Of a DNA stretch of 64,000 bases, positions 33,792 through 62,503 are shown one piece after another. Origin of the DNA: Actinomycetes bacterium (GTDB lineage Bacteria > Actinomycetota > Actinomycetes > Actinomycetales > Dermatophilaceae); assembly GCA_029552065.1 (NCBI GenBank), contig JAKPEG010000068.1:3033-67032 (forward strand). The letters run 5' to 3'. The translations under genes and the position numbers were made by a program. The notes beneath the pieces are model-generated. The model was not told where the DNA came from. It ran no database searches and saw nothing but the letters and a program-made list of their open reading frames with translations. The first letter of the stretch is position 1; each line of letters opens with the position of its first letter.

Positions 33792-34070
33792 TCAGGCGGC
33801 CAGGAGACTGTTGCCGCGAGCGAGGCGGGCGAGCTTGTCGTGCAGGATGCGACGGATCATCTCGGCCTCGGGGGACTCGCTGCGGTCGGCCGCAGCGAGC
33901 AGGTCTTCGATCTCCGAACGGGTGTGGTAGGCGTCGAGCTCCCGCAGGAGCCGGGCGTGCGCCTGGCGCGCCGCGCGCCGGACGCGCAGCTCGTCGCGGA
34001 GGCTGCCCCACAGGCCGGCGAGGCCCGAGGTGGCACCGGTGGTCGTCGGGGTGTCCTTCGTGGTGTTCAT
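33792..34070 (-). CDS. hypothetical protein
   Basis: 92 aa from ATG 34070 (MNTTKDTPTTTGATSGLAGLWGSLRDELRVRRAARQAHARLLRELD...), with alternative ATG 34079. High GC3. No family recognised. Confidence 0.45.
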   Translation of the reverse strand: MNTTKDTPTTTGATSGLAGLWGSLRDELRVRRAARQAHARLLRELDAYHTRSEIEDLLAAADRSESPEAEMIRRILHDKLARLARGNSLLAA

Positions 34071-34106
34071 GTCATCCATCCTGGCCGCCACCCATTCATG
34101 CGTCCA

Positions 34107-34137
34107 ATACCGAAATGGCTGACTATCCATGCGGTAT
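34107..34137. promoter_or_regulatory. inverted repeat ATACCG-N19-CGGTAT (inner ATGG/CCAT) in the divergent region upstream of the LysR gene
   Basis: ATACCGAAATGGCTGACTATCCATGCGGTAT, ending 12 nt upstream of GTG 34149. It is AT-rich relative to its surroundings and plausible as a LysR-type binding site. Confidence 0.4.
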
Positions 34138-34148
34138 CGTCATGATTT

Positions 34149-35042
34149 GTGGACACCGAGGGGCTGCGCTGGTTCCAGCAGGTGGCCGACGGCGCGACCG
34201 TCACGGAGGTGGCCGAGCTGTCCATGGTGAGCCAGCCCAAGGTCTCCCGTGGCCTGGCGGCGCTGCAGGCCGAGGTCGGGACGCCCCTGCTGGCGAGGTC
34301 GGGCAGGCTGTTGCGGCTCACCCACGCCGGCGCGATCTTCAAACGGCACGTCGACGGGATCGTCCACGGGATAGACGACGCGCTCGCCGACGTCGACCAA
34401 CTCGTCGACCCCGAGCGGGGCACGGTGACCCTCGGCTATGACGCCACCCTGGGCACGTGGCTGGTCCCCTCGCTTGTGGGGACCTTCCGGGAGCGGCATC
34501 CACGGGTCCGGTTCGCCCTCGTCGGCGTCGACGACGAGGGCGACGTCTTCGCCGACGGGCGGGTCGACCTCGTCGTCGCCGCGCGCCCGGGGTATGCCGC
34601 CGGGGGTCCCCAGGTCCACTGGCGTCGGCTCTTTCACGAGGCGCTCTTCCTCGCCGTCCCGCCCGGACATCGGCTCGAGGACATCGACACCGTGTCGGTC
34701 GCGGATCTCGTGCATGACCAGTGGGTGGCGCTGCCGGCTAAGGCGGGCCTGCGGCATACCGTCGAGGAGCTCTGTGCGGCAGCCGGCTTCGAGCCGCGGA
34801 TCGCGTTCGAGGCCGACGACCTCGCAACCGTGCGCGGCTTCGTCGGTGCGGGTCTGGGGGTGGCCCTTGTCCCGGCCATGGGGGAGGACCCCATGCCCCG
34901 TTCGGCCGGGGTCGCGCGGCTGGTCGCCGTCGCCGACCCGGGCGCGCGCCGCGACATCGGCCTTGCGTGGTCGGCACAGCGGCGGCTGCTTCCCGCCGCC
35001 GAACTCTTCCGCCGGCACGTGCTCGCGACCGTGAGCCGTTGA
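34149..35042 (+). CDS. LysR family transcriptional regulator
   Basis: 297 aa with an N-terminal HTH (LRWFQQVADGATVTEVAELSMVSQPKVSRGLAALQAEVGTPLLARSGR) and a periplasmic-binding-like effector domain. Confidence 0.88.
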   Translation: MDTEGLRWFQQVADGATVTEVAELSMVSQPKVSRGLAALQAEVGTPLLARSGRLLRLTHAGAIFKRHVDGIVHGIDDALADVDQLVDPERGTVTLGYDATLGTWLVPSLVGTFRERHPRVRFALVGVDDEGDVFADGRVDLVVAARPGYAAGGPQVHWRRLFHEALFLAVPPGHRLEDIDTVSVADLVHDQWVALPAKAGLRHTVEELCAAAGFEPRIAFEADDLATVRGFVGAGLGVALVPAMGEDPMPRSAGVARLVAVADPGARRDIGLAWSAQRRLLPAAELFRRHVLATVSR

Positions 35043-35064
35043 TCCGCGCGGACGGTCTTCGGCT

Positions 35065-35853
35065 TCAGCCGACAGCGTTCGCGGCGGTGGGGCCGGCGCC
35101 GGCCGAGCGGACTTCGCGCACGACTTCGCCCAAGGCCTCGGGATCGTGCGCGAACCTGCCGAGGAACAGACCGTCTGCCCGTCCGGCGAGCCCGGCGAAG
35201 GTGCCGGGGCCCGCGGCACCGCCGTAGAGAACGCGGGTGGCGGGGGCAATCCGACGGATCCGCTCTCGCAGGGACGCGCACACGACGCCGGCGTAGTCGG
35301 CCGGAGCAGGGCAGGGCGCCCCGATAGCCCAGATCGGTTCATAGGCGAGCACGAGCGGGGCGCCCTGGGCCAGGGGGGGAACCGAGGCGACCATCTGCTC
35401 GACCTCGGCCGCGCATTCGTCTGCCGCCTCAGCGGCAGATCCGCGGTGCTCCTCGCCCACGCAATAGAGCGGGGTCATCCCCGCCTCGACCACCTGGTGG
35501 CTCTTGGCGACGATCGTGGCCAGGTCCTCGCCGAACAGCCGTCGTCGCTCGGCGTGCCCGACCTCGACATAGCTGCAGCCGAGCTCGGCGAGCACGGAGG
35601 CCGCCACCTCACCCGTCTGGGCGCCGTCCCCGCTCGCCGCGCAATCCTGCGCGCCCCAGTGAATCCCTGTGTCGCGCAACGCATATGCTGTGGACTCCAG
35701 GAGTGGGAAGCTCGGCAACACAGCCACCTCGACCGGGCCGCTGGCGGTGACCCGGTCGCGGACCTGGGCGACCCACGAGCGGGTGGTGGCGGCAGACAAG
35801 TACATCTTGAGACTCACCGCGACCAGTGGCCGTGCAGTGGAGGGAAAGCTCAC
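35065..35853 (-). CDS. triosephosphate isomerase family protein (paralogue; probable tetrose-phosphate isomerase)
   Basis: 262 aa, GTG start. TIM signatures are present (VAVSLKMY..., VEVGHAERR, LAYEPIWAIG, LYGGA). It is the last gene of the kinase-RpiB-TIM unit and is not in a glycolytic context. Confidence 0.82.
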   Translation of the reverse strand: MSFPSTARPLVAVSLKMYLSAATTRSWVAQVRDRVTASGPVEVAVLPSFPLLESTAYALRDTGIHWGAQDCAASGDGAQTGEVAASVLAELGCSYVEVGHAERRRLFGEDLATIVAKSHQVVEAGMTPLYCVGEEHRGSAAEAADECAAEVEQMVASVPPLAQGAPLVLAYEPIWAIGAPCPAPADYAGVVCASLRERIRRIAPATRVLYGGAAGPGTFAGLAGRADGLFLGRFAHDPEALGEVVREVRSAGAGPTAANAVG

Positions 35854-35862
35854 CGTCGGCGG

Positions 35863-36327
35863 TCAACAGTCGTAGGAACTGATCGCGTCGACCTTGGCGG
35901 CCGACGCGGAGGCCCGATCGAACTCGTAACCGAGCCACTCCTTGGCCAACCGACGGGCCAGCTCGATCCCCACGACGCGCTGACCCATGCACAGGACTTG
36001 GGCGTCGTTGCTGAGCACCGACCGTTCGACGGAATAGCTGTCGTGGGCGGTGACGGCTCGGACCCCGTGCACCTTGTTGGCGCTGATTGCGACACCGAGG
36101 CCGGTGCCGCAGATGAGCAGGGCTCGGTCGGATTCCCCGGCGGCGACCCGTCGCGCGGCCTCGACGGCGACATGCGGGTATGCCGTGTGTTCGTCGGCAC
36201 CGACGCCCACGTCGACGACCTCGCTCACCCGCGGGTCCTTCCGCAGGTCCGCAGCGATCCGTTCCTTGTACTCGTATCCGGCGTCGTCGCAACCGATGAC
36301 GATCCTCCACGTGCGGCCTTGCGACAT
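35863..36327 (-). CDS. RpiB/LacA/LacB family sugar-phosphate isomerase
   Basis: 154 aa with [17 protein letters not shown]...[30 protein letters not shown] upstream. Confidence 0.9.
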
Positions 36328-36375
36328 GCTGATCTCTCCTTGGTGACTGCGGGTAGGTCGCGGTGTGGTGCCGGC

Positions 36376-38094
36376 TCAGCCGGCCGGGGCCGTGGCGGTA
36401 CCTGCGATGTGAGGGGTGAGGGTTTCGGTGATGAGGGCAAAGGAGATCGCACCGGGGTCGGGGGTGCCGATGCTCGCCTCGGCGTGGTTCTTCGAGCGGC
36501 CCCTCTTGGCGGCATACTCCGCGGTCCGTCGGGCCGCCTCGCTGGCGACGGCGACGGCGGCGGGCCACTGGTCTGCGCCCGCGGTCGTGGGATCGGTGAA
36601 GGCATCCTTGAAAGGCACCGCGGCGTCGACCATCGTCTTGTCGCCGACAGCCGCGCCGCCGAGCCCGAGGATGGCCTCGACGGCCGCGCGCACCGCCGCC
36701 GGGATCGTGTCACGCCCACTGACCGTCTGGTCGTCCAGGAGCCGGGCTGCGGCCCCCAGCGCCGCACCCCAGAGGGCCCCGGAGGTGCCGCCGGCCCGTT
36801 CGGCCCAGGCGTCGCCGGCCCGGGCCAGCAGCGTGGCCGCGCCGGCACCGGCGGCCACCGACTGCTGTGCGGACTCGTCCGCGGCACGAGCGCCGCGGAG
36901 CATCCCGATCCCGTGATCGCCGTCGCCGGCGATGGCGTCGATCCGGCCGAGGTAGGGCTCCTTCGCCGCGAGCATGCGGTGGACGTCGCCGAGCGCGGCC
37001 GCGATCCGGCCGGCCAAGGCCTGTGAGGCACTGCTGGCGGGTGGGACCTCAGCCGGGGCGTCCGACCACTCGTCCGCTGCCGCCACGCGCTCTGCGACAT
37101 CGACCGCGCCGCGCCGCAGCGACGGCGTGTCGCACGGGGCCAGCCACAGTGGCTCGAGCTCGTCGTCGAGCCACGTGACGGTGAGCGACACACCTGCCAT
37201 GTCCAGGCTGGTGACCTGTTCGCCGACGATGGGCTCGACGACCTGGTAACCACGGTCGGCCAACGTCTGGGCGACCGTGCCGTAGGCCACGAAGAGTTCC
37301 TCGTACTTCACCGTGCCGAGACCGTTGAAGAGCACCGCGAGGCGAGATCCCTCGGCTGGAGGTTCGGCGAGGATCCGGTCGACCAGTTGGGTTGCCACCT
37401 CGGCAGCCGTGGCCATCGGGGCGTCGGAGATGCCCGGCTCGCCGTGGATACCCAAGCCCAGGCTCATCTGTCCGGCAGGCACGGTGAACAGCGGCTCTGG
37501 CGCTCCGGGAAGGCGGCATCCGGAGAAGGCGTAGCCGAGCGAGCGAGTGCGGTCGTTGGCCTTGCGGGTGAGGCGCTCCACCTCGTCCAGGTCCAAGCCC
37601 GCGGCCGCCGCGGCCCCCGCGATCTTGTAGACCGGCAGGTCGCCGGCGATGCCGCGGCGGGTGTGCGGTTGGCCCGGGTCGCCGGAGGCGATGTCGTCGG
37701 TGACCGGGACGATCCGCACGTCGATCCCCTCGGCGCGCAGGCGCTGCGCGGCCTGGCCGAAGTGCAGCACGTCACCGGCGTAGTTACCGAAGCCGAGCAG
37801 CACCCCGCCGCCGGTGTGCGCGGCCTTGCACACGGAGTAGACCTGGGCCGCGGCGGGAGAGGCGAAGATGTTGCCGCAGGGCGCACCGTGCGCGAACCCC
37901 TGGCCGACCCAGCCGGCGAAGGCGGGGTAGTGGCCCGAACCGCCGCCGACGACGAGGGCGACCTGGCCGGCGGGAACCTTCGTCGCCCGCGCCACACCGC
38001 CGTGCACCGGCCGCACATGGCCCGGGAAAGCGGCCACCATGCCCACGAGAGCCTCGTCGGCGAAGTCTGCCGGGTCGTTGAGCAGGAACGTCAT
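36376..38094 (-). CDS. dihydroxyacetone-kinase family kinase (fused DhaK-DhaL, ATP-dependent type)
   Basis: This is the last 572 aa of track ORF 36376..38706 (MTFLLNDPADFADEALVGMVAA...GGGSGHYPAFAGWVG...). The DhaL half has DAIAGDGDHGIGM and DKTMVDA. Confidence 0.9.
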   Translation of the reverse strand: MTFLLNDPADFADEALVGMVAAFPGHVRPVHGGVARATKVPAGQVALVVGGGSGHYPAFAGWVGQGFAHGAPCGNIFASPAAAQVYSVCKAAHTGGGVLLGFGNYAGDVLHFGQAAQRLRAEGIDVRIVPVTDDIASGDPGQPHTRRGIAGDLPVYKIAGAAAAAGLDLDEVERLTRKANDRTRSLGYAFSGCRLPGAPEPLFTVPAGQMSLGLGIHGEPGISDAPMATAAEVATQLVDRILAEPPAEGSRLAVLFNGLGTVKYEELFVAYGTVAQTLADRGYQVVEPIVGEQVTSLDMAGVSLTVTWLDDELEPLWLAPCDTPSLRRGAVDVAERVAAADEWSDAPAEVPPASSASQALAGRIAAALGDVHRMLAAKEPYLGRIDAIAGDGDHGIGMLRGARAADESAQQSVAAGAGAATLLARAGDAWAERAGGTSGALWGAALGAAARLLDDQTVSGRDTIPAAVRAAVEAILGLGGAAVGDKTMVDAAVPFKDAFTDPTTAGADQWPAAVAVASEAARRTAEYAAKRGRSKNHAEASIGTPDPGAISFALITETLTPHIAGTATAPAG

Positions 38095-38155
38095 CGGTCC
38101 TCCGGTCGGATCGGTTCGGGCAGGAAGCTCGCGGCTCGATGCTGCCGCGATGCGT

Positions 38156-38189
38156 CCCTGCTCCGGGCCGGCGAGGGCCCGGAGCAGGG
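38156..38189 (-). terminator. perfect 14-bp GC-rich stem-loop between the dehydrogenase and kinase genes
   Basis: CCCTGCTCCGGGCC (38156-38169), a 6-nt loop, GGCCCGGAGCAGGG (38176-38189). It starts 7 nt downstream of the dehydrogenase stop on the transcribed strand. No U-tract. Confidence 0.5.
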
Positions 38190-38195
38190 GCATGT

Positions 38196-39053
38196 TCAGC
38201 GCTGGATCGGCTCGCGCAGGTGGAGCATCTGCTGGAGGTTCTTGTCCAGCTCGTCGTCCTGGAAGATCACCTTCCAGTCGTCGCGGACGATCTTGTTCCG
38301 GCCGTAGATCATCGCGATGTGGCAGGCGTCGCTGTAGGGGTTGTCGCCCTGGAGGGAGTTGGCCAGCGAGACCTGGATGTGGCCGAGCAGGATCGCGCGG
38401 GCCGCGGGCTCGGGGACGCCCATCGTGTGCACGGCCTCGTGCAACGCCTCCTTGAGGAAGTCGCCGACCATGCAGGCGACGGTCTCGACGAGGGTCGGCT
38501 CGCACTGGGCGAGCTGCTTCACGGTGATCCAGTGCACCTCGAGGATCGGGGCGTACATCTGCCGGATGACCTGCTCGGCCTGGTCGCGCTTGCCCTGGTT
38601 GTCGTACTCGAAGGCGGCGACGACGTCCATCGGCGCATACTCGCCACCGAAGGTGTCGTTGTGCTCCTCCTCCGTGGGCCGGTAGAGGAAGATCGACGGG
38701 TGGCACGGGTGGGCCACCGCGTAGAAGATGTCCTCGCGGGGGAAGAGCAGGTTCGCGTATGCCGCGGCCGGGTCGAGGGTGAGCACGACGGTGCCGGACT
38801 CGAGCTGGGGCACGACCTGCTGGGTGACCTTGTCCAGGACGATGTCGGGGACGGCCAGCACGACGACGTCGACGCCCCGGATCGCGGTGTCCAGGTCGGT
38901 GAGGCTGCGACCCTCCTCGAGGACCCGGGCCTGGCCGGCCTCGCTGTTCTCGACGTAGCGCACGTCGTTGTCGGTCTTGGCGAGGTTACGCGAGACGCGC
39001 ATCCCCATCTTGCCGCCCGCTCCGACGACGGCGATCTTCAAGATGTCAGACAT
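38196..39053 (-). CDS. NAD(P)-binding dehydrogenase (semialdehyde-DH-like N-domain / phosphogluconate-DH C-terminal-domain type)
   Basis: 285 aa from ATG 39053, with GGAGGAG 5 nt upstream. The Rossmann motif is MSDILKIAVVGAGGKMGMRV. There is an 8-nt overlap with the upstream isomerase gene. Confidence 0.7.
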   Translation of the reverse strand: MSDILKIAVVGAGGKMGMRVSRNLAKTDNDVRYVENSEAGQARVLEEGRSLTDLDTAIRGVDVVVLAVPDIVLDKVTQQVVPQLESGTVVLTLDPAAAYANLLFPREDIFYAVAHPCHPSIFLYRPTEEEHNDTFGGEYAPMDVVAAFEYDNQGKRDQAEQVIRQMYAPILEVHWITVKQLAQCEPTLVETVACMVGDFLKEALHEAVHTMGVPEPAARAILLGHIQVSLANSLQGDNPYSDACHIAMIYGRNKIVRDDWKVIFQDDELDKNLQQMLHLREPIQR

Positions 39054-39837
39054 GGTTGCTCCTCCTGAGGAAATCGATGTTGTGACTGGTCCATTCGGCT
39101 TCGACACGAGCGGTTGTTGCGGGGTCGCCCTGCCAGACCAACCAGTGCTCGATGATCTGGTTGACCCCCTTGCGCTCGGGTTGCACGGCGGCGATCATGC
39201 CGTCGTAGTCGAGCAAACCCTCGCCCAGGCGGGCCCCGGCATAGGTGAAACCCACCCAGCCGTCCTGACGGCTGAACGCAAAGTCCTTCACGTGCAGGTT
39301 CTTCACGTATGCCGCGGTGGTCGCCACCGTCTCGGTCGGCTTCTCCAGTGCGGCAACGGAGTTGGCTGGGTCGAGACAGATACCCAGGTGCTCCGAGCCG
39401 ACCTGCTCGACGATCTCGACGAGCCGCGCCGTCGGCACCTGCTCGTAGGTCTCCAGGGCGACGGTGACCCCGGCCGCCTCGTAGTCCGGCAGGAAGTTGC
39501 CGAGGAGGCCGACGGCCTCCGACGCCTCCGGGCGGGTGACCATACCCCGGACCAGTCGGGCGCCGGTGGCGCCCGCGAGGTCGAGGTAGTGGTGCATGTG
39601 TGCGGTGTCCAGACCCCGGGTGCCCAGTTCGAGTGCGATCCCGCGCTCCGCGGCATACCGACCGACCTCGGCCGCCTCGGCGACCGTCATCGTGTGCAGC
39701 GGCGGGTAGTCGCAGAACTGGAAGACGCGGACGCCCTGGGCGGCGCAGTCGTCGAGCAGGTCGCGCCAACGCATCGGCGTCGACGCCGTCTCGTGCCACC
39801 GCCAGAAATAGGCGTAGGTGCTCAGACCGATCGCCAT
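39046..39837 (-). CDS. sugar-phosphate isomerase/epimerase (xylose-isomerase-like TIM barrel)
   Basis: 263 aa with VALETYEQ..., LGICLDPANS and NLHVKDF motifs of the AP-endonuclease-2/xylose-isomerase-like fold. Confidence 0.84.
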   Translation of the reverse strand: MAIGLSTYAYFWRWHETASTPMRWRDLLDDCAAQGVRVFQFCDYPPLHTMTVAEAAEVGRYAAERGIALELGTRGLDTAHMHHYLDLAGATGARLVRGMVTRPEASEAVGLLGNFLPDYEAAGVTVALETYEQVPTARLVEIVEQVGSEHLGICLDPANSVAALEKPTETVATTAAYVKNLHVKDFAFSRQDGWVGFTYAGARLGEGLLDYDGMIAAVQPERKGVNQIIEHWLVWQGDPATTARVEAEWTSHNIDFLRRSNHV

Positions 39838-39838
39838 C

Positions 39839-41212
39839 TCAGTGACCGGCCGGGACGGACAGTTGCTCGCTGCCTTCGGCGGTGGTGACCCGGCCCATCT
39901 TCACGAGCACGAGCATGAGCACCCCGGAGAGGACCATGAGGGCACCGACCAGGAACATCGAGGTCTGGTAGTTGCCGGTGCCGTCCTTGAGCCAACCGGT
40001 CACGTAGGGGGCTGCGAAACCGGCGATGTTGCCGAAGGTGTTGATGAGGGCGATCCCGGCCGCTGCGGCCATCCCGCTGAGGAACTGGGTGGGCACGGTC
40101 CAGAAGACGGGCAGGGCGCTGAAGATGCAGCATGCCGTCACGGTGATGATGGCCACGGTGAGGGCCGGCGAGCCCGACTGCAGGGCAAGGGGGATCGAGA
40201 CGCCGCCGAGGAAGGCCGGGACGAAGATGTTGGCCGGCTTGACCCCACGCTTGGCGGCCATCGTCGTGACGATGTAGAGGACGATCGCCGCGGGCAGGTA
40301 AGGGATCGCCGTGATCCACGCCTTGCCCATGGTGTCGAGCTTCGTGCCGAACTGGGTCTCGAAGCCGCTGATGATCGTGGGCAGGAAGAAGGCCAGGGCG
40401 TAGAGGCCGTAGACGAAGCCGAAGTAGATGAGGGCGAGGATCCACACGCGACCGGAGCGGAAGGCGTAGGCGAGTCCGGTGTGCTTGCCCGAGCCGGCGT
40501 CACCGGAGGCGTTCTCCTTGGCGAGTTCACCGGTGAGCCAACTCTTCTCCGCGTCGGTGAGCCAGGGGGCCTTCTGCGGGTCGTCGACGAGGACGAACCA
40601 GGCGAGGATGCCGACGATCACCGCGGGGATGCCCACGCCGAGGAACATGACCCGCCAGCCCTCGAGGCCGAACAGGCCGTGCTGGTTGATGAGCCAGCCG
40701 GCCAGCGGGGCGCCGATGACGGTGGTGAGCGGCTGGGCGAGGTAGAAGAGGCCGAGGATCCGGCTGCGGTAGCGCGCCGGGACCCAGAGGCTGAGGAAGA
40801 GGATGGCGCCGGGGAAGAAGCCGGCCTCCATCACACCGAGCAGGAAGCGCAGCCAGGCCAACTGGGTGTAGCTGGAGACCCAAGTGAACAGCACCGCGAC
40901 CAGGCCCCAGGTGACCATGATCCGCGCGAGCCAGGTGCGAGCCCCGAACTTGTGCAGGGCCATGTTGCTGGGGATCTCGAGGATGATGTAGCCGGCGAAG
41001 AAGATGCCGGAGGCGAAACCGAACTGGGCCGCGGTGAGCCCGAGGTCCTTGGTCATCCCGTTGGGGCCGGCGAAGCCGATCGCCGTCCGGTCCAGGTAGT
41101 TGATGAAGAACATGAGCGCCACGAACGGCACGAGACGCGCGGACACCTTCTTGATGGCCGAGCGTTCGACTGAGCTGGCGGCCGGTGTCGGCGCCGGGAC
41201 GGTCTGGGACAT
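39839..41212 (-). CDS. MFS transporter (anion:cation symporter/ACS-like)
   Basis: 457 aa, 12 TM, with INYLDRTAIGFAGP and GWLINQHGLFGLEGWRVMF motifs typical of ACS-type sugar-acid/polyol carriers. It is the first gene of the cluster. Confidence 0.87.
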   Translation of the reverse strand: MSQTVPAPTPAASSVERSAIKKVSARLVPFVALMFFINYLDRTAIGFAGPNGMTKDLGLTAAQFGFASGIFFAGYIILEIPSNMALHKFGARTWLARIMVTWGLVAVLFTWVSSYTQLAWLRFLLGVMEAGFFPGAILFLSLWVPARYRSRILGLFYLAQPLTTVIGAPLAGWLINQHGLFGLEGWRVMFLGVGIPAVIVGILAWFVLVDDPQKAPWLTDAEKSWLTGELAKENASGDAGSGKHTGLAYAFRSGRVWILALIYFGFVYGLYALAFFLPTIISGFETQFGTKLDTMGKAWITAIPYLPAAIVLYIVTTMAAKRGVKPANIFVPAFLGGVSIPLALQSGSPALTVAIITVTACCIFSALPVFWTVPTQFLSGMAAAAGIALINTFGNIAGFAAPYVTGWLKDGTGNYQTSMFLVGALMVLSGVLMLVLVKMGRVTTAEGSEQLSVPAGH

Positions 41213-41269
41213 CTGCGCACTCCTCTTTGAGTAACGGCCACATCGATACTAGGTGACTCTATCCCTGAT

Positions 41270-41299
41270 TGGTCAACTGGTCAACCGGTCAACCGGTAC
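41270..41299. promoter_or_regulatory. triple direct repeat (T/C)GGTCAAC in the MFS/GntR divergent region (candidate GntR operator)
   Basis: TGGTCAAC TGGTCAAC CGGTCAAC CGGTAC, read directly at 41270-41299. It lies 58 nt upstream of the MFS start and about 110 nt upstream of the GntR start. Confidence 0.5.
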
Positions 41300-41407
41300 T
41301 CCTTTCGCTGATCGGCGTGGGCACGATGACGGTGCTACCGTCGCCGGGTGAGCCCCCATGCCCGCAGCGCCGCCGACGTCCCCGGACGTATTGCGCCGCT
41401 GCCCGCG

Positions 41408-42091
41408 ATGGCTGCGGTCGCCACGCCCGTGGCGACGGTGACCCGCCACCTGCTCGACGAACTCATGTCCGGCCGTTGGCGACCGGGGGACCGGCTGCCT
41501 CCCGAGCGCACCCTCGCGACCCAGCTCGGTGTCGGCCGGTCGGCGATCCGGGAGGCCGGCGCGGCACTGGAGATCCTCGGCGTACTCGAGGTGCGCCCGG
41601 GTTCGGGCACCTATGTCCGCGACGGCGCGAGCGGCCTGCTCCAGGAGACGCTCAGCTGGGGTCTGCATCTGTCGGTGGAGCGCACGGGCGATCTCATCGA
41701 GGTGCGTGAGGCCCTGGAGATCCAGGCCGCTCGGGCCGCCGCCGGACGGGTGACCGACGAGCAACTCGACCGGCTCCAGGGTCATCTCGCGGCGATGGCG
41801 GCCAACCTCGCGGACTACCCGGCATTCGTCCGTGCCGACATGCTCTTCCATGAGCAACTCGACGAGGCCGCCGGGAATGCGACCCTGCGCGACCTGGTGC
41901 GCTCGGTCCGCGCGCTCATCCGGGTGTGGGTAGAGCGAGCGCTCGACCAGGGCGGTCATGCCGACACGACGCTGCGCGAGCACGGGGCGATCCTGGCCGC
42001 CCTGCAGGCCCGCGATCCCGACCTCGCGGAGGCGGCGATGCGCAGCCACATGGTGTCCGCGCGTCAACGGCTCAGCGAAACGCTTGAGTGA
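41408..42091 (+). CDS. GntR family (FadR/FCD subfamily) transcriptional regulator
   Basis: MAAVATPVATVTRHLLDELMSGRWRPGDRLPPERTLATQLGVGRSAIREAGAALEILGVLEVRPGSGTYV, followed by an FCD-like helical domain. An alternative GTG start lies at 41348. Confidence 0.85.
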   Translation: MAAVATPVATVTRHLLDELMSGRWRPGDRLPPERTLATQLGVGRSAIREAGAALEILGVLEVRPGSGTYVRDGASGLLQETLSWGLHLSVERTGDLIEVREALEIQAARAAAGRVTDEQLDRLQGHLAAMAANLADYPAFVRADMLFHEQLDEAAGNATLRDLVRSVRALIRVWVERALDQGGHADTTLREHGAILAALQARDPDLAEAAMRSHMVSARQRLSETLE

Positions 42092-42137
42092 GACCGCGAC
42101 GCCGGAGGGGACCCGCGGTCGCGCGGTCAAGGCGCCG

Positions 42138-42956
42138 TCAGGACTCATCGAGGCGGGCGAGCAGGTCGGTGCGGGCGTCGAGGATCGCCGCGCGCAGTTC
42201 GGCCTCACGACCGTAGAAGCGCTGGGCCGGCATGGGCACGCTCACCGCCAGCGGGGCGTCGGCGCTCGGGTCGATGACGACCGCCACCGCGCAGATCCCC
42301 TCCGTGTGCTCCTCGCGGTCGTAGGCGACGCCCGCTTGGCGGATCTGGCGCAGCTCGCGGCGCAGGGCGGCGGAGGTCGTGAGGGTGTTCGCGGTGAGTG
42401 CGGCGGCGCGCGCGGGCAGCAGGTCCGTGCGCCCGCGCTGGGCGAGCACGTCGAGGATCGCCTTGCCGGGGGCGCACGAGTGCAGCGGGAAGGTCTCCCC
42501 GACGGCGCTCACCGCCTGTAGGCGATTGGGTGCCACCACCTGGTCGAGGAAACGCACGCTGTCGCCGTCGAGCACGGACAGGTCGACGGTCTCGCCGAGG
42601 CCGCGGGACAGCTCGGCGAGGGCCGTGTGCAGGGTGGCGAGCGAGTCGCGGTTGACGGCGGCAGCCATCCGGACGATCTCGGGTCCCAGCCGATAGCGCG
42701 AGCCGACTCGCGCAAGGCGCAGCATCCCCTCCGACTCGAGCGCACCGACGATCCGATGGACGGTCGTGCGGGCCAGGCCAAGGCGCTCGGCGAGCTCGGC
42801 CTGGGAGGCGCCGCCGGGCTCGCGGGCGACGGCCCGCAGGATGTCGGCGGCTCGGGCGATGACCTGTATGCCGTTCGCCGCGGCACCGTATGTCGTGGCT
42901 TCCGCCCCGGCACGGGGCGGCGGCGCGGCCGCCGCCCGTGCCGGCGCGGGCGTCAC
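42138..42956 (-). CDS. IclR family transcriptional regulator
   Basis: 272 aa. The HTH is QAELAERLGLARTTVHRIVGALESEGML, followed by an IclR effector domain. The GTG start overlaps the stop of the upstream gene (GTGA), making it the last gene of the long operon. Confidence 0.87.
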   Translation of the reverse strand: MTPAPARAAAAPPPRAGAEATTYGAAANGIQVIARAADILRAVAREPGGASQAELAERLGLARTTVHRIVGALESEGMLRLARVGSRYRLGPEIVRMAAAVNRDSLATLHTALAELSRGLGETVDLSVLDGDSVRFLDQVVAPNRLQAVSAVGETFPLHSCAPGKAILDVLAQRGRTDLLPARAAALTANTLTTSAALRRELRQIRQAGVAYDREEHTEGICAVAVVIDPSADAPLAVSVPMPAQRFYGREAELRAAILDARTDLLARLDES

Positions 42957-43642
42957 CAGGGGACCTTCGGAGTGACCATGTCCCTATGTTCGGCGATGTA
43001 GAGCGAAGGAAGGAAGCGCGAGAGGAAGGTGAACTCGTTGTAGGCGTGCTGGAGCAGCGCCCGGCCGAACTCGTCCGGGAAGATCTGGGCCATCTCGTCG
43101 GGGCTCGCGCCGGTCGCGGGCAGGTCGTAGCCGAGGAAGAAGTGGCTGCGCAGGACCAGCCCCCAGTCGGTGTCCCGGCCGATGTGCGCCATCCGGCCGC
43201 CGAAGATGGTGCCGTCGTCGGCGCGAGGCGGGTCCCAGCCCTCGTTGATCCGTGCGACGACCGCGCTCGTGATCGCTCCGCTCCCTCGCGCCGCGGCATA
43301 CGCCTGGGGGTCGAAGAATTCGTTCGGGTCGCGGAATTGGATGGTGAGGTCGGCCGCGGGCAAGCCCGTGAAGAACTCGGTGACGACGTGCTCGGAGCCC
43401 ACGTGCGTGTCGGGGCGCAGGTCGCCCTTCCAGTCGCTGAAGACGTGGTCGACCGGGTGCCACCAGATGTACTTCTGGGTGTCGCAGCGCCAGCGGAACC
43501 ACCATTCGAACATTTCTCCGGTGCAGCCGTGCATGTCGGTGCGGGCGGCCACGTGCAGGACGCCGTTGGGCAGCCGCTCGTAGCCGGTCTCGATCGGCAG
43601 CGGGGTGGGGTCCAGCAGCGGGACCATCTCCGGAATAGGCAT
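42953..43642 (-). CDS. hypothetical hydrolase, possibly DAPG/phloretin-hydrolase (PhlG)-like
   Basis: 229 aa. The CDS is well supported by GC3 and coupling. The family call is tentative. It rests on WWHPVDH, a downstream acidic residue and a C-terminal H-x3-E (LLQHAYNEF), whose spacing resembles the Zn ligands I recall for PhlG. Confidence 0.45.
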   Translation of the reverse strand: MPIPEMVPLLDPTPLPIETGYERLPNGVLHVAARTDMHGCTGEMFEWWFRWRCDTQKYIWWHPVDHVFSDWKGDLRPDTHVGSEHVVTEFFTGLPAADLTIQFRDPNEFFDPQAYAAARGSGAITSAVVARINEGWDPPRADDGTIFGGRMAHIGRDTDWGLVLRSHFFLGYDLPATGASPDEMAQIFPDEFGRALLQHAYNEFTFLSRFLPSLYIAEHRDMVTPKVPW

Positions 43643-43699
43643 GTCTGATCCTCTCGGTCGGGCGCAGGTCGGTGGTGGGCGGTCGGTTGGGGGTCGGGC

Positions 43700-44515
43700 T
43701 CAGCGGCGGGGAAGGCCGAGCAGGATCTCGGTCTCCTGCACCCCGGCCACGGGTCGGTCGAGCGCCCGGGCGAGGGCGACCGTGCGGGCGACGAGCGGGT
43801 CGTTGCCCTGGGTGAGCTCGCCCTTGCGCAGGTAGAGCGTGTCCTCCATGCCGGCCCGGGCGTTGCCGCCGAGGGCGAGCCCCATCGCGGTGAGCTCGAG
43901 GTTGGCCCGGCCGATCGAGATGATCTGCCAGATCGCGCCCTCGGGCAGCCGCCGGACGATCGTCATGAGGTTGTCGGCGGTGGCCGACGCCCCGCCGACC
44001 ACGCCGAGGACGATGCTGAACTGGAGCGGCTCGGCGAGCAGCCCCTCGTCGCGCAAGCGCAGGCAGGCGTCGAGGTGCCCCGTGTCGTAGATCTCCAACT
44101 CGGGCTTGACGTCCAGTTCGCGCATCCGGGCCGCGAGCCGGCGCACGCCGTCGGGCGGGTTGCGGAACTCGCCGACCCCGAAGCTCATCGAGCATGGGTT
44201 GAGGGTGGCCATCCGGGGGCGCAGCTCGACGAGCTTCTCGCGTTCCTCGAAGGGCACCGACAGCCCGACGCCGGTGGACATCTGGACGAGGATCGGACAG
44301 CGCTCGGCGATGAGGTCCATTGTCCGGCGGGCGATGTCGAGGTCGGCGGTCGGCCGGTCCTGTTCGTCGCGCAGGTGGATGTGCGCGACCGACGCCCCGA
44401 GCTCGTAGGCCCTCCCGACCGCCTCGGCGATCTCGGCGGGTTGGGTGGGCAGGCTCGGGTTGTCGGCCTTCGAGGCGATCGGGCCGGTCGGGGCGACGGT
44501 GATGACGGCGGTCAT
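43700..44515 (-). CDS. BKACE family enzyme (beta-keto acid cleavage enzyme, DUF849)
   Basis: 271 aa from ATG 44515, with GGAGGA SD. It reads MTAVITVAPTGPIASKADNPSLPTQPAEIAEAV...ASVAHIHLRD...GNARAGMEDTLY, typical of 3-keto-5-aminohexanoate-cleavage-type TIM barrels. Confidence 0.88.
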   Translation of the reverse strand: MTAVITVAPTGPIASKADNPSLPTQPAEIAEAVGRAYELGASVAHIHLRDEQDRPTADLDIARRTMDLIAERCPILVQMSTGVGLSVPFEEREKLVELRPRMATLNPCSMSFGVGEFRNPPDGVRRLAARMRELDVKPELEIYDTGHLDACLRLRDEGLLAEPLQFSIVLGVVGGASATADNLMTIVRRLPEGAIWQIISIGRANLELTAMGLALGGNARAGMEDTLYLRKGELTQGNDPLVARTVALARALDRPVAGVQETEILLGLPRR

Positions 44516-44537
44516 GGGTCCTCCTTCGGCGACGACC

Positions 44538-44900
44538 TCAGTCTGGCCTGGGCACGGCGATGACGACGAGCAACCGGGCATCGTCGGTGGACTCGTTGTC
44601 CACGCTGCGGACGGTGCCGCGTGGCATGTGCGCCGAGTCGCCGGCATACAGCGTGGTGGTGGTCTGCGTGTCGCCGTCCGTGACTCGCAGGACGAGTTCG
44701 CCTGCAAGACACACGTAGACGGTCTCGGCTGCGGTCGGTGCCGTGAGCGCGCGCGAGCCCGGCGGATAGACCGAATTCCCGACCCAGAAGGCCTCGGTCG
44801 GCCCCGCCTCGATCCCCTGCAGCCGGTTGGTCACCACCCCTTCGTGCAGGGGAGCGACGTATGCCGGTGCCTCGGCCGCCCGGGTGATCCGCGCGGCCAT
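44538..44900 (-). CDS. cupin domain protein
   Basis: 120 aa (MAARITRAAEAPAYVAPLHEG...VYVCLAGELVLRV...LYAGDSAHMPRGTVRSV). ATGA overlap with the cyclase gene. Confidence 0.72.
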   Translation of the reverse strand: MAARITRAAEAPAYVAPLHEGVVTNRLQGIEAGPTEAFWVGNSVYPPGSRALTAPTAAETVYVCLAGELVLRVTDGDTQTTTTLYAGDSAHMPRGTVRSVDNESTDDARLLVVIAVPRPD

Positions 44901-45730
44901 CACGAACCCGGCTCGAACCGGTAGCTGCCGCTGGGGTCGGTGATCGCGACGAGGCGCACGATGCAGCCGTCGCCGCCGACCCAGCGCCAGGGGAACGCGG
45001 CGAAGGTCACCCGCTTGCCGGTGACCGCGTCCAGGTCGCCGCCGATGTTCTCGAAGCCGTAGATCCCGTGGGAGAGGATCGCGTTGTGGCAGGGCTCCCA
45101 CCACGGGAAGTCCTCCTTCACCGGGCGGCCGGTGAGTTGCTCGTATTCCCTGCAGGCCCAGGGCAAGAGGCCCCCGGTCTCCTCGGCCGGGCCGTGCGGG
45201 CCGATCGCCGTGCCGAGCGGGTGGTCGAGGGCCTGGGTGTCGGCGCCGACCGCCTTCACCTTCTTGGACACGAACCACTCGCCGGCCTCCTTGTAGTAGC
45301 CGGGGGAGTAGGCGTAGTACTCGGCGCTGTCGGCGTATCGGTGATGCCAGCCGGTGTTGACGATGACGATGTCGCCCTCGCGCACGGGGGTGACCTGGCT
45401 GGCCCGCTCGAGGTCTTCGGCGGTGATGACCTCCCACTTGCCCTTGGGGATGTCCAGCACGACGCCGGTGCCGAAGAAGTTGCGCAGCGGGATCTCGTGG
45501 AGCAGCGGCGTGCCCTCGACGACGTGGCCGGGAGCGTCGATGTGGGTGCCCGAGTGCATGACCGTGGTGATCTTCTGGGTGAGCACGCGGCTCTTGGCCA
45601 TCCCGTGCAGCCGCTCGATCTTCACGTCCTCGAAGTAGGGCCAGGCCGGCACCCCGTGTCCCCACGGGTGGGACAGGTCGTAGAACTGCAGGCCGGCCTC
45701 GTTGGGGCCCTCGGCCCAGGTGTAGGTCAT
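44900..45730 (-). CDS. cyclase family protein (kynurenine-formamidase-like metal hydrolase fold)
   Basis: 276 aa. MTYTWAEGPNEAGLQFYDLSHPWGHGVPAWP...HSGTHIDAPGH carries the HxGTHxDxPxH motif. ATGA overlap with the ABC ATPase stop. Confidence 0.84.
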   Translation of the reverse strand: MTYTWAEGPNEAGLQFYDLSHPWGHGVPAWPYFEDVKIERLHGMAKSRVLTQKITTVMHSGTHIDAPGHVVEGTPLLHEIPLRNFFGTGVVLDIPKGKWEVITAEDLERASQVTPVREGDIVIVNTGWHHRYADSAEYYAYSPGYYKEAGEWFVSKKVKAVGADTQALDHPLGTAIGPHGPAEETGGLLPWACREYEQLTGRPVKEDFPWWEPCHNAILSHGIYGFENIGGDLDAVTGKRVTFAAFPWRWVGGDGCIVRLVAITDPSGSYRFEPGS

Positions 45731-47451
45731 GGGAGTTCCTTTCGATGGGTGGGGTGAGCGGGTCGGTCGTGCGACGGAGAAGCAGCAGGTATGCCGCGTG
45801 GTCCCGTGGGTCCGCCCCTCCCGTCGGCCGACTCGCCGACGTAGAGAGCCGCGAGGGCCGGATCCTTGGCGACGTCGGCAGCATTGCCCTGCAATGCGAT
45901 TCGGCCTTGGGCCAGGACATAGGCGCGGTCGGCGAGGGACAGGCCGCGGGCGATGTTCTGCTCGACGAGGACCATCGCGACCCCGGAGGAGCGCAGGGTG
46001 TCGAGCGCCTCGTAGAGCCGGTCGACGGCGATCGGCGCCAGTCCCAGGGAGATCTCGTCGAAGACGACGAGGCGGGGCTCGGACATGAGCGCCCGCCCCA
46101 CCGCGAGCATCTGCTGCTGGCCTCCGCTCATCGCCGTGCCGCTCTGGTTGCGCCGGTCGGCGAGGATGGGGAAGACGTCGTAGACCTGCTCGAGCCGGCG
46201 GGACCGCTCGGCCGCGGACGCGTCGCCGGCGCCGAGCACGAGGTTCTCCTCGACGCTCAGCGTGCCGAAGATCCGTCGCCCTTCCAGACATTGAGCCAAG
46301 CCCGCTGCCGTGACCCGGTCGGCCCGCCAGCCGGTGACGTCGGTGCCAGCGAAGCGGACCGTGCCGCCGGAAAGAGGCAGAGCCCCGGCCACGGCCCGCG
46401 CGAAGGTCGTCTTGCCGGCACCGTTGGCACCGAGCAGGGCGACCGTCTCGCCGGGGTGGACGACGAGATCGACCTCGCGCAATGCCCGCAGCCCGCCGTA
46501 GTCGACGGTGAGTCCGCGCACGTCGAGGAGCGGCTCTGCGGAAGTGGCCGTAGCCGGGGCAGTCCGTGGGGCGAGCGGTGGCGCACCTTTGCCCGAGTCC
46601 GACCCGGGTATGCCCGCAGCCAGACCCGGGCCCGGGTCCGCGGCGGGTGCGTGCTCGCCGGCCGCCGTGCCCAGGTAGACCGCGGCGACGGTGGGGTCGG
46701 CGAGCACGGCCCGGGTCGGGCCGAGGGCGATGAGCTTGCCGAAGTCGAGCACGGCCGTGCGGTCGCAGCAGGCGGTGATGACGTCCATCACGTGCTCGAT
46801 GACGAGCATGCCGTCGACCTCGGTCCGCAGGTCGAGGATGAGGTCGATGAGCTCGGCCGTCTCCGACTCGACCAGACCCGCGCCGATCTCGTCGAGCATG
46901 AGCAGCCGGGGCGACAGGGCCATCGCCCGCGCGAGCTCCAACCGCTTGCGGCGCAAGAGGGTGAGTCCGCCGGCGAGGGTGTCCGCGTGGTCGGCCAGGC
47001 CGGTCCGGTCGAGGATGCGCAGACACTCGGTCCGCCGAAGCGAGGTGCCCGCGCGGTGTCCGGAGTTGCTCGCTGCGAGCAGGAGGTTGTCCAGGACCGT
47101 CATCCGGGCGAACGGCCGCGGGATCTGGTGAGTGCGGCCGATCCCCAGACGCGCACGCCGGGCGGCGCCCTCTGCGCTCACGTCCCGGCCACCGAGCGCG
47201 ACGGTGCCCGCGGTGGGAGCGAGGGCGCCGCAGACGAGCCCGACGAGGGTGCTCTTGCCCGCGCCGTTGGGCCCGATCACGCCGACGACTTCACCGCGCG
47301 TCACGTCGAGGTCGACGCCGTCGAGGGCCGTGACGCCGCCGAAGCGCTTGCCCAGGCCGCGCACGGAGAGCACGGCGTCGCCCGGGCTCGCCTGCCCGGT
47401 GGCGACGGGAGCCGCGGTGGCTGCGGGCGGCATACCGGCGGGGGTGCTCAT
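45727..47451 (-). CDS. fused LivG-LivF-type ABC ATP-binding protein (two ATPase domains in one polypeptide)
   Basis: 574 aa. Domain 1 has GPNGAGKST with a degenerate signature region (LAGGLTLLRRKRLELARA) and LLMLDE. A roughly 40-aa Pro/Gly/Ala linker follows. Domain 2 has GANGAGKTT, MSGGQQQML and VVFDE. It ends in a roughly 40-aa basic/Pro-rich tail. Confidence 0.9.
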   Translation of the reverse strand: MSTPAGMPPAATAAPVATGQASPGDAVLSVRGLGKRFGGVTALDGVDLDVTRGEVVGVIGPNGAGKSTLVGLVCGALAPTAGTVALGGRDVSAEGAARRARLGIGRTHQIPRPFARMTVLDNLLLAASNSGHRAGTSLRRTECLRILDRTGLADHADTLAGGLTLLRRKRLELARAMALSPRLLMLDEIGAGLVESETAELIDLILDLRTEVDGMLVIEHVMDVITACCDRTAVLDFGKLIALGPTRAVLADPTVAAVYLGTAAGEHAPAADPGPGLAAGIPGSDSGKGAPPLAPRTAPATATSAEPLLDVRGLTVDYGGLRALREVDLVVHPGETVALLGANGAGKTTFARAVAGALPLSGGTVRFAGTDVTGWRADRVTAAGLAQCLEGRRIFGTLSVEENLVLGAGDASAAERSRRLEQVYDVFPILADRRNQSGTAMSGGQQQMLAVGRALMSEPRLVVFDEISLGLAPIAVDRLYEALDTLRSSGVAMVLVEQNIARGLSLADRAYVLAQGRIALQGNAADVAKDPALAALYVGESADGRGGPTGPRGIPAASPSHDRPAHPTHRKELP

Positions 47452-49285: not shown

Positions 49286-49323
49286 GGCGGTCCTCGGCTC
49301 CTTCCCTCAATGCGCGTGTCTGG

Positions 49324-52342: not shown

Positions 52343-52456
52343 GGCGGGAACATTGTCCCGCGATGCGGTTGAGAGTAGAGTGGTCGCCGTCACACGTCAA
52401 GAGCCATCGGAGGCGACGTGCAGGTCCGGTGGCCGGTCGAGCAGGAGGGTCGGGCC

Positions 52457-61172: not shown

Positions 61173-61279
61173 GGGGTCAGTCTGCCCGAGGCGGGTATGC
61201 CGTTTCGCGCCGATTAGCCTGGGCTTTGGGGTCGGGAAATCTGTTCCTGTCGACGCGGGCGGGCGGCTACGGTGCGAGC

Positions 61280-62430: not shown

Positions 62431-62503
62431 TGCCCCCGGCGCGAATCGAACGCGCGACACCCGCTTTAGGAGAGCGGTGCTCTATCCCCTGAGCTACGAG
62501 GGC
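62431..62503 (-). tRNA. tRNA-Arg (anticodon CCU)
   Basis: Minus-strand sequence: GCCCTCGTAGCTCAGGGGATAGAGCACCGCTCTCCTAAAGCGGGTGTCGCGCGTTCGATTCGCGCCGGGGGCA. It has a 7-bp acceptor stem (one G-U), a D-loop AGCTCAGGGGATAGAGC, anticodon loop CUCCUAA and a GTTCGATTC T-loop. CCA is not encoded. Confidence 0.92.

Follow-up and report, generated by a model that had tools for sequence, protein, structure and literature searches.

In a Dermatophilaceae genome (assembly GCA_029552065.1), a minus-strand operon with a divergent regulator gene most probably serves the import and catabolism of D-apionate by the oxidative “route 3” that ends in erythrose-4-phosphate; we put the probability of this reading at about 0.8. 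D-apionate is the acid corresponding to apiose, a sugar of plant cell walls. The cluster lies within a stretch of 64,000 nucleotides of contig JAKPEG010000068.1 that was analysed as a whole (the window). According to PMC13753588, which cites Carter 2018, route 3 of D-apionate catabolism runs through ApnO, OiaC, LerK, EryH and EryI, and the arrangement found here equals this account. The input should therefore be an acidic branched C5 sugar, and the substrate is likely a branched C5 sugar acid rather than a polyol or keto-sugar. A preliminary description of the locus had set the arrangement apart from known pathways. Since the pathway was published already in 2018, the cluster is a fresh example of a known system and not a new pathway.

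Gene organization and related loci

Pfam domains place the minus-strand genes, in the order first described, and the divergent GntR gene where the preliminary description had put them. The comparison sample comprised 80 related ApnO loci, 59 of them with full flanks. The gene set is far from a chance association, because OiaC adjoins ApnO in every one of the 80 loci and 46 of the 59 full-flank actinobacterial loci add the kinase, RpiB and TIM genes together (RpiB is present in 50 of the 59). Gene set and order are identical in Enemella evansiae, and a plasmid of Pantoea At-9b carries the same set, with rpiB and tkt in divergent orientation. In 39 of the 80 loci the flanks of ApnO hold a homologue of a protein with Pfam Apionate_lact domains, which bears the label apionolactonase, and Auraticoccus adds two Pfam Apiosidase genes.

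The cluster sits inside a variable region of about 27 kb, and a search of 200 genomes sampled from the same family did not detect ApnO. The region varies between strains, and the acquisition of the cluster was probably horizontal. The LysR gene (34149–35042, plus strand), which converges on the TIM gene, does exist but does not belong to the locus as had been thought, since it is part of a backbone conserved in 1 of 4 same-genus genomes without the cluster. Beyond the GntR side, Pfam identifies an IclR-type regulator gene (42138–42956).

The oxidoisomerase and its decarboxylase partner

The dehydrogenase encoded at 38196–39053 (minus strand; Pfam NAD_binding_2 and PGDH_C) is, judged by its sequence, an ApnO-type D-apionate oxidoisomerase, an enzyme using NAD+ and a divalent metal. 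The start codon, an ATG at 39053, is preceded by an AGGAGG site, and the gene shares its first 8 nt with the end of the OiaC gene. Homologues with 65–73 % identity bear the name D-apionate oxidoisomerase. The protein matches PDB 5t57 over its full length (41 % identity, E = 1e-60), the 5t57 chain being 100 % identical to the product of the ApnO gene of Cupriavidus (C.) necator N-1 pBB1. Moreover, AaApnO residues D68, D92, H113, H116, F133, E183, E188, H222, S239 and C242 (PMC13753588) are conserved, and every residue found essential by mutagenesis of AaApnO is retained.

The gene at 39046–39837 (minus strand, PF01261) encodes a xylose-isomerase-like TIM barrel that falls by homology into the OiaC-labelled group, i.e., it is a predicted 3-oxo-isoapionate decarboxylase and the partner of ApnO. 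JGI annotates homologues with 53–60 % identity as 3-oxoisoapionate decarboxylase. An EryC-like isomerase, as initially suggested, fits poorly with the strict pairing with ApnO (80/80) and with the finding that no curated isomerase family of NCBIfam matched the protein. In addition, it has no detectable similarity to the xylose-isomerase-fold protein of a ribonate-like kinase/RpiB/TIM cluster devoid of ApnO (L088). The homologue names behind the annotations ApnO, OiaC and L-erythrulose 1-kinase are automatic annotations. Characterised ApnO, OiaC and LerK sequences are B9JK75, Q6D8V3 and C0CMQ7, respectively.

From erythrulose to erythrose-4-phosphate

The proposal that kinase, TIM paralogue and RpiB paralogue form a module leading from erythrulose to erythrose-4-phosphate (LerK, LerI/EryH and DerI/EryI, respectively) is supported. 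The kinase is a fused DhaK-DhaL protein (Pfam Dak1 and Dak2; 719 bits on NF011049) of the LerK type, a predicted ATP-dependent erythrulose kinase. Its start is the ATG at 38094, which lies behind a GGAGGA ribosome-binding site, and the gene therefore extends over 36376–38094 (minus strand) and encodes 572 amino acids; the 776-aa reading frame of the ORF list was rejected on these grounds. Full-length alignment with a Mycolicibacterium protein that bears the name L-erythrulose 1-kinase gives 60 % identity, and the kinase gene is the only Dak1 gene of the genome. The nearest homologues outside Enemella are found in non-ApnO clusters.

The putative D-erythrulose-4-phosphate isomerase of the DerI/EryI type (35863–36327, minus strand, PF02502) scores 146 bits on the corresponding NCBIfam model, below the 240-bit cut-off of the rhizobial DerI equivalog, compared to 77 bits for a second RpiB encoded on contig C171, whose best PDB matches are 2vvo, 1usl and 2bes. 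The putative L-erythrulose-1-phosphate isomerase of the LerI/EryH type (35065–35853, minus strand, PF00121) remains far under the TIM equivalog cut-offs. The catalytic residues Lys, His and Glu are all present, but the NWKMN motif is changed to SLKMY and loop 8 reads GRFAH. When a profile of the cluster-linked TIM proteins is compared with PDB, 3s6d comes first and 11ef (“L-erythrulose-1-phosphate isomerase”) second, and the protein itself, when ordinary TIMs are taken for comparison, is nearer to the solved L-erythrulose-1-phosphate isomerase by just a small margin. Since the genome also holds a housekeeping TIM (contig C228) and the C171 RpiB, the two cluster enzymes are true paralogues, distinct from the housekeeping copies.

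Uptake and regulation

The first gene of the operon (39839–41212, minus strand, PF07690) encodes an ACS-type MFS carrier, probably a D-apionate/H+ symporter. Its best family is TIGR00893, the ACS-type D-galactonate transporter subfamily, with 270 bits, below the cut-off of 395. The carrier shares 66 % identity with the MFS protein encoded directly upstream of the crystallised ApnO in C. necator N-1 pBB1, and 63 % with that of the Pantoea At-9b cluster; orthologues occur in 40 of the 59 full-flank loci. Since the carrier is shared with a C. necator cluster whose downstream route differs, the ligand common to both would be D-apionate.

The divergent regulator of the FadR subfamily (41348–42091, plus strand; Pfam GntR and FCD domains) has orthologues in 47 of the 59 full-flank loci and points away from the operon in 49 of all 80. 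It probably represses the operon, acting on the MFS promoter via three overlapping copies of the core TGGTCAAC-Y-GGT (41268–41297), and would probably be released by D-apionate or a pathway intermediate. These copies overlap the -35 hexamer of a sigma-70-like promoter (TTGACC - 17 nt - TAGAGT; 41256–41284, minus strand), which a promoter scan returned as the sole promoter-like site between 34000 and 43000 (shuffles average 0.3). The repeat at 41270–41299 had already been considered a plausible GntR operator, and this idea gains weight from the core GGTCAAC, present in all 49 GntR-divergent spacers of related loci (consensus AATTGGTCAACCGGTT) against a background rate of 0.21 per kb.

The spacer between apnO and lerK (about 101–104 nt) indeed contains the perfect 14-bp hairpin noticed earlier, with a 6-nt loop (38156–38189, minus strand, inverted repeat). 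The spacer folds at -56.8 kcal/mol (z = -4.5), a value reached by none of 200 shuffles. The hairpin occurs once in the genome, has no match in Rfam and is not followed by a U-tract. Relatives do not share it: their spacers, 0–120 nt long, fold no better than shuffles. An attenuator or an RNA-stabilising element are possible functions.

Alternative substrates

The same enzymes could in principle act on another C2(R),C3(R) aldonate, for example D-ribonate, D-erythronate or L-lyxonate, which we consider unlikely. ApnO would then produce a 3-oxo acid, the xylose-isomerase-fold enzyme would decarboxylate it to D-erythrulose or dihydroxyacetone, and kinase and isomerases would funnel these products to erythrose-4-phosphate or triose phosphate. 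The Aurantimonas ApnO is promiscuous and also oxidises D-erythronate, D-ribonate, L-lyxonate and L-rhamnonate; AaApnO acts on D-ribonate and D-erythronate about as efficiently as known ApnOs do on D-apionate. A “metabolic funnel” of this kind has been proposed in PMC13753588, according to which LerK phosphorylates D-erythrulose as well. Four substrate-lining residues of the present ApnO differ from proteobacterial ApnOs (S187V, F218I, L226S and F238Y), but S187V is common to the Pantoea-type cluster. Similarly, the failure to find an apionolactonase or apiosidase weighs less in a genome that is just 88 % complete, and the Pfam-labelled apionolactonase homologue flanks half of the orthologous loci. 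Only L-erythrulose-1-phosphate, to which D-apionate is expected to lead, calls for the conserved TIM paralogue, and an orthologue of the carrier belongs to the C. necator apionate cluster with the RuBisCO-like protein.

The preliminary description had favoured a tetritol, erythrulose or another polyol or keto-sugar, and we regard this as very improbable. In that reading, polyol oxidation would fall to the dehydrogenase, and the xylose-isomerase-fold protein would be an EryC-like isomerase or racemase. The kinase/TIM/RpiB module also occurs in the pathways for tetritols in M. smegmatis and for erythritol in Brucella, and some close kinase homologues cluster with SDR or other dehydrogenases. However, the 5t57 match and the conserved residues make the dehydrogenase an ApnO-type oxidoisomerase with a KARI-like bimetal site and not a polyol dehydrogenase, and Pfam reveals neither an EryA-type kinase nor a polyol dehydrogenase or EryB-type dehydrogenase in the cluster. 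The carrier belongs to the anion:cation symporters, the regulator is an FCD-GntR typical of acid-sugar loci, and the xylose-isomerase-fold gene is tied to ApnO. That dehydrogenase and carrier depart from those of tetritol loci had been recognised correctly.

A generic dihydroxyacetone/glycerone utilisation locus with a DHA kinase and a TIM isozyme is scarcely credible: the kinase fits the family model for dihydroxyacetone kinases as well as PDB DHA kinases, and D-erythronate would yield DHA via ApnO and decarboxylation, but canonical TIM motifs are gone from the TIM paralogue (Asn to Ser; loop 8 GG to GR), the RpiB paralogue would be left without a role and related loci keep the link to ApnO and OiaC.

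Relation to known pathways

The closest system is route 3 itself (Carter et al., Nat Chem Biol 2018, as related in PMC13753588), whose five enzyme families are all found here in one cluster; the Pantoea At-9b plasmid and E. evansiae carry the same set, MFS carrier included. The present cluster differs by its new actinobacterial host, by entry through an MFS carrier and by an operon split by a private hairpin. The discovery strategy of Carter et al. in 2018 was reportedly built around solute-binding proteins. The C. necator N-1 pBB1 cluster, ordered GntR(FCD), MFS, ApnO, RuBisCO-like protein and DUF1537 kinase, shares the first three genes in this order (66 % identity for MFS, 41 % for ApnO), whereas, downstream, OiaC and the erythrulose module give way to a kinase plus a RuBisCO-like enzyme working on 3-oxo-isoapionate-4-phosphate.

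The tetritol pathway of Mycobacterium smegmatis (LerK, DerK, LerI, DerI) is said to have been described by Huang et al. in 2015. It likewise reaches erythrose-4-phosphate with a DAK-family kinase and TIM- and RpiB-family isomerases, but the present cluster has neither polyol dehydrogenases nor an ABC importer and would make L-erythrulose by decarboxylating an oxidised acid sugar. With the Brucella/Rhizobium erythritol pathway (EryA, EryB, EryC, EryH, EryI) it has the EryH-like TIM and EryI-like RpiB in common, but not the EryA kinase or the EryB dehydrogenase, and its xylose-isomerase-fold protein would not function as a racemase of the EryC type. An acid sugar is also converted to a 3-oxo acid and then decarboxylated in the D-ribonate and C4 acid-sugar pathways (Rib2D/OrnI/DerK; Ltn2D or Den2D/OtnI/OtnK/OtnC). 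ApnO is able to replace their dehydrogenase-plus-isomerase pair, and the present cluster differs from them in having no DUF1537 kinase, class II aldolase-type decarboxylase or separate isomerase.

Proposed pathway

D-apionate would enter via the ACS-type MFS carrier. ApnO, as its homology and catalytic residues suggest, would oxidise C2 with migration of the hydroxymethyl group to give 3-oxo-isoapionate, which OiaC would decarboxylate to L-erythrulose, a step to which gene linkage and database names point. The fused kinase (LerK) would then form L-erythrulose-1-phosphate, the TIM paralogue (LerI/EryH) would convert it to D-erythrulose-4-phosphate and the RpiB paralogue (DerI/EryI) would deliver D-erythrose-4-phosphate to the pentose-phosphate pathway. 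No apiose dehydrogenase was found in the 88 %-complete genome. Since it yielded no apiosidase or apionolactonase either, the organism is probably a scavenger of free D-apionate and not of apiose glycosides.

Gene organisation of the cluster

Pfam assignments confirm six co-directional minus-strand genes, set in a window with a G+C content of about 71 %. In order of increasing coordinate they encode a TIM family protein (35065-35853), an RpiB family protein (35863-36327), a fused Dak1+Dak2 kinase, a dehydrogenase with NAD_binding_2 and PGDH_C domains, a xylose-isomerase-like TIM barrel of PF01261 (XI-fold; 39046-39837) and an MFS carrier (39839-41212). A GntR/FCD regulator (41348-42091) is transcribed divergently from the plus strand. 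For the kinase, the ATG at 38094 behind a GGAGGA motif was preferred to the start that gives a 776-aa ORF, while that of the dehydrogenase is the ATG at 39053, with AGGAGG in front, which gives an 8-nt overlap with the stop of the upstream XI-fold gene. A perfect 14-bp hairpin lies at 38156-38189. The Pfam results and the inverted-repeat coordinates thus bear out the gene layout and the hairpin of the preliminary description.

The source organism is known from a metagenome-assembled genome only, a 3.65-Mb assembly of 239 contigs that is 88 % complete. Elsewhere it encodes a housekeeping TIM and a second RpiB, whose best PDB matches are 2vvo, 1usl and 2bes; the Dak1 gene is single.

A predicted D-apionate pathway

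At the level of sequence, the cluster is a predicted new actinobacterial member of a known pathway, D-apionate route 3. As outlined in PMC13753588, which cites the 2018 work of Carter et al., and in PMC12994016, this route proceeds by ApnO, OiaC, LerK, EryH and EryI, via L-erythrulose to erythrose-4-phosphate.

The upper half of the cluster is predicted to consist of ApnO and OiaC. According to PMC13753588 (J Biol Chem 2026), ApnO resembles KARI, uses NAD+ and carries a bimetal centre, and its putative counterpart in the cluster is a PGDH_C-type NAD+ oxidoisomerase with the bimetal-site residues. Homologues of the window dehydrogenase at 65-73 % identity carry the name D-apionate oxidoisomerase. 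The closest solved relative, over the full length, is PDB 5t57 (E = 1e-60), a chain 100 % identical to the product of a gene on plasmid pBB1 of Cupriavidus necator N-1. The residues mutagenised in the Aurantimonas enzyme, AaApnO, were transferred onto the window protein through the C. necator sequence. In AaApnO numbering, Asp68, Asp92, His113, His116, Phe133, Glu183, Glu188, His222, Ser239 and Cys242 are kept, and four residues, all pocket-lining, are changed (Ser187 to Val, Phe218 to Ile, Leu226 to Ser and Phe238 to Tyr), the first of these changes being common to the window enzyme and the Pantoea-type protein. An NCBIfam scan of the dehydrogenase gave weak N-terminal Rossmann matches and nothing informative. 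With the 5t57 match and the catalytic residues kept, the substrate class is no longer the tetritol or erythrulose of the preliminary description.

The second step of route 3 would fall to the XI-fold gene beside ApnO, as a putative decarboxylase. Its homologues at 53-60 % identity are named 3-oxoisoapionate decarboxylase, and OiaC adjoins ApnO in all of the 80 best ApnO loci. The NCBIfam scan returned nothing for the protein, its curated isomerase and epimerase families included. The EryC-like role first given to it and the role given to the dehydrogenase yield to OiaC and ApnO, respectively. A PDB search with OiaC returned no close relative, the top match being 3tva (E = 1e-6). Similarity to the window OiaC was also not detected in the XI-fold gene of L088, a comparison locus with a kinase/RpiB/TIM cluster but no ApnO. 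Another locus without ApnO, L099 on plasmid p2 of Pararhizobium qamdonense (1208-9608), combines a TRAP transporter and a split transketolase with an SDR, a fused DAK kinase and an XI-fold protein that shares 33 % identity with the window OiaC. This set is similar to the non-oxidative transketolase route for apiose, which suggests that OiaC relatives work in another apiose pathway too.

The kinase and isomerases of the lower half

The preliminary description appears to have been right about the lower pathway, in which the kinase, TIM and RpiB proteins would lead to erythrose-4-phosphate. The kinase passes the DAK family model, has the fused architecture in both Pfam and NCBIfam, and shares 60 % full-length identity with a Mycolicibacterium protein annotated as L-erythrulose 1-kinase. 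Further homologues bear the names D-erythrulose kinase or DHA kinase, C1 regiospecificity being a property that cannot be read from sequence.

The TIM paralogue, distinct from the housekeeping enzyme, keeps the catalytic Lys, His and Glu and is altered in loops 1 and 8, where NWKMN has become SLKMY and the loop-8 motif GGASL has become GRFAH. This signature is common to the cluster-linked TIMs of Actinomycetota and Pantoea. When a profile of these TIMs is run against the PDB, 3s6d comes first and 11ef, an ‘L-erythrulose-1-phosphate isomerase’, second, the latter outscoring an ordinary TIM by 3 bits only. On NF051858, the NCBIfam D-erythrulose-4-phosphate isomerase model with a cut-off of 240 bits, the cluster RpiB reaches 146 bits and the housekeeping RpiB 77 bits, about half as much; the cluster protein passes the actinobacterial RpiB model TIGR02133 as well. 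Because 11ef stands barely above ordinary TIMs and the RpiB score falls below its cut-off, the assignments of TIM to LerI/EryH and of RpiB to DerI/EryI are mainly context-based.

The top solved relatives of the two paralogues are the ‘putative’ TIM and RpiB entries 3s6d, 3qd5 and 3sdw, from the fungus Coccidioides immitis. 3s6d carries both SLKMY and GRFAH, and the three entries, products of structural genomics, may in reality be erythrulose-phosphate isomerases. In L088 (8001-13748), the kinase is 66 % identical to the window kinase and is accompanied by RpiB, a 3HCDH-like dehydrogenase, an unrelated XI-fold protein, TIM and an SDR, with split DUF1537 kinase genes and a beta-hydroxyacid dehydrogenase beside the cluster. 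L088 is another acid-sugar or tetritol funnel into erythrose-4-phosphate.

Related loci, the carrier and alternative substrates

Relatives of ApnO occur in at least 574 stretches of species-representative genomes, from which the 80 best loci were taken for counting. OiaC, the kinase, RpiB and TIM occur jointly in 46 of the 59 loci with full flanks, and MFS and GntR are additionally present in 28 of the 59. Enemella evansiae, a relative in culture, has exactly the gene order of the window, while a Pantoea At-9b plasmid combines MFS, DAK, TIM, OiaC and ApnO with divergent rpiB and tkt.

The MFS carrier is nearest to the ACS-type D-galactonate transporter subfamily, with a score below its cut-off, and is 66 % identical to the carrier beside the C. 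necator ApnO. The pBB1 cluster (GntR(FCD), MFS, ApnO, RuBisCO-like protein, DUF1537-kinase) belongs to the phosphorylating apionate route, and downstream of ApnO it is unlike that of the window. Since the carriers are orthologous while the downstream routes differ, D-apionate is the simplest shared ligand.

In Auraticoccus monumenti the OiaC-ApnO pair is accompanied by two Pfam Apiosidase genes and one gene with Apionate_lact domains (PF25837 = Apionate_lact_N). With this lactonase as query, 39 of the 80 best loci proved to have a homologue in their flanks. The Auraticoccus locus L096 (9041-20579), with GntR, OiaC, ApnO, a nucleoside-hydrolase-like gene, an ABC sugar importer, the two Apiosidase genes and the apionolactonase, is a complete apiose-glycoside locus; no kinase, RpiB or TIM gene lies within its flanks. 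The source genome, at 88 % completeness, gave no lactonase with the Auraticoccus query and no Apiosidase family match, and the organism likely takes up free D-apionate.

As neither enzyme was found there, the pathway might not start from apiose in this organism, and the main rival reading takes further C2(R),C3(R) aldonates, for example D-ribonate or D-erythronate, as the true substrates. We consider this improbable: ApnO is promiscuous, but the conserved TIM paralogue, the lactonase linkage in related loci and the MFS orthology with the C. necator apionate carrier speak against it. In an equally doubtful extended form, the cluster would be a general aldonate funnel, in which the MFS protein takes up D-ribonate, L-lyxonate and D-erythronate, the pocket-altered ApnO clade (S187V, F218I, L226S) oxidises and isomerises them, and the XI-fold protein acts as a broad 3-oxo-aldonate decarboxylase. 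If this were true, the carrier and the GntR operator of this clade would give the first access to a regulon of this kind in Actinomycetota.

Other known pathways differ from the predicted D-apionate route in their enzymes. In the tetritol pathway of M. smegmatis, the polyol dehydrogenases EltD and DthD and an ABC importer precede LerK, LerI and DerI, whereas the window cluster has a single dehydrogenase, of ApnO type, and an MFS carrier of ACS type. The EryA kinase, FAD-dependent EryB and EryC racemase domains of the Brucella-type erythritol pathway are absent from the cluster's seven genes by Pfam. The C4 acid-sugar (tetronate) pathway uses the DUF1537 kinase OtnK, the decarboxylase OtnC and the isomerase OtnI, and the cluster contains none of these (no SBD_N/NBD_C or aldolase_II domain in Pfam, no match to the OtnI family).

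Predicted operator and hairpin

The MFS/GntR spacer contains three overlapping copies of TGGTCAAC-Y-GGT (41268-41297), which share bases with the -35 hexamer of the single promoter-like site of the region. The core GGTCAAC, with a background rate of 0.21 per kb, is present in 49/49 GntR-divergent spacers of related loci (consensus AATTGGTCAACCGGTT), which supports the operator first suggested there. The predicted operator is a conserved FadR-type half-palindrome, repeated in the window. A genome search revealed no credible site beyond this spacer: the pattern TGGTCAACYRGT gave two extra matches, a rate equal to that of a control pattern, and both were rejected as lacking the AATT flank and looking coding.

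The hairpin-bearing spacer folds at -56.8 kcal/mol (z = -4.5). The hairpin is present in a single copy in the genome, which disposes of a repeated extragenic element; it has no U-tract, and an Rfam scan of 34000-43000 gave no match. It may act as an attenuator of read-through or protect the mRNA upstream of it, but relatives lack the hairpin, and it does not belong to the conserved parts of the system.

Genomic setting and origin

Synteny with four same-genus genomes ends at the latest at about 35015, at the end of the LysR gene (34149-35042), and extends that far in one of the four. It returns between about 57.2 and 62.4 kb, beside tRNA-Arg(CCT) (62430-62503), so that some 27 kb at 35050-62430 are without a syntenic counterpart in these genomes. 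In one same-genus relative the LysR-tRNA distance is 1.7 kb. This places the cluster at the edge of a variable region of about 27 kb. LysR, which the preliminary description had counted as part of the locus, belongs to the backbone and was rejected as a regulator of the cluster. Among the ORFs scanned in 35050-62430, none encodes an integrase.

A sample of 200 genomes from the same family, the four same-genus ones among them, yielded no ApnO; at the level of the order, 31 of 300 genomes had it. In a quick tree, used for nearest neighbours only, the window ApnO groups with that of Enemella (SH-aLRT 90), which NCBI places in Propionibacteriaceae. The cluster was likely acquired horizontally, and from the genome tallies we infer a transfer between orders. 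G+C is 0.67-0.68 at 38000-41000 (MFS, OiaC and ApnO) against 0.70-0.74 in most neighbouring 1-kb windows, which is compatible with a foreign origin.

The regulator on the other flank is IclR-type by Pfam; it was rejected as regulator of the cluster, as it heads the neighbouring one. This minus-strand cluster (42138-52400) encodes, besides IclR, a DAPG-hydrolase-like protein (PF18089), a beta-keto acid cleavage enzyme (BKACE), cupin and cyclase-family proteins, a 3-hydroxyacyl-CoA dehydrogenase and a fused two-domain ABC ATPase with Liv-type permeases. Within the same variable region, it probably forms a catabolic unit of its own, of beta-keto-acid or polyketide-like type. Further on, at 57230-62071, a 928-aa RNA repair enzyme of Pnkp type, with kinase, phosphatase and ligase domains, precedes a 552-aa ORF that overlaps it and a gene of the RlaP family, a stretch sharing 80 % DNA identity with one same-genus genome only.

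Significance

The branched sugar apiose occurs in plant cell walls, in rhamnogalacturonan-II and apiogalacturonan, as well as in many plant glycosides. The cluster leaves current knowledge unchallenged, and recognising the operon replaces the generic labels “oxidoreductase”, “sugar phosphate isomerase/epimerase” and “dihydroxyacetone kinase” by a specific pathway. The candidate D-apionate MFS transporter and the conserved GntR operator are directly testable, and the ApnO-OiaC-erythrulose module is widespread in Actinomycetota.
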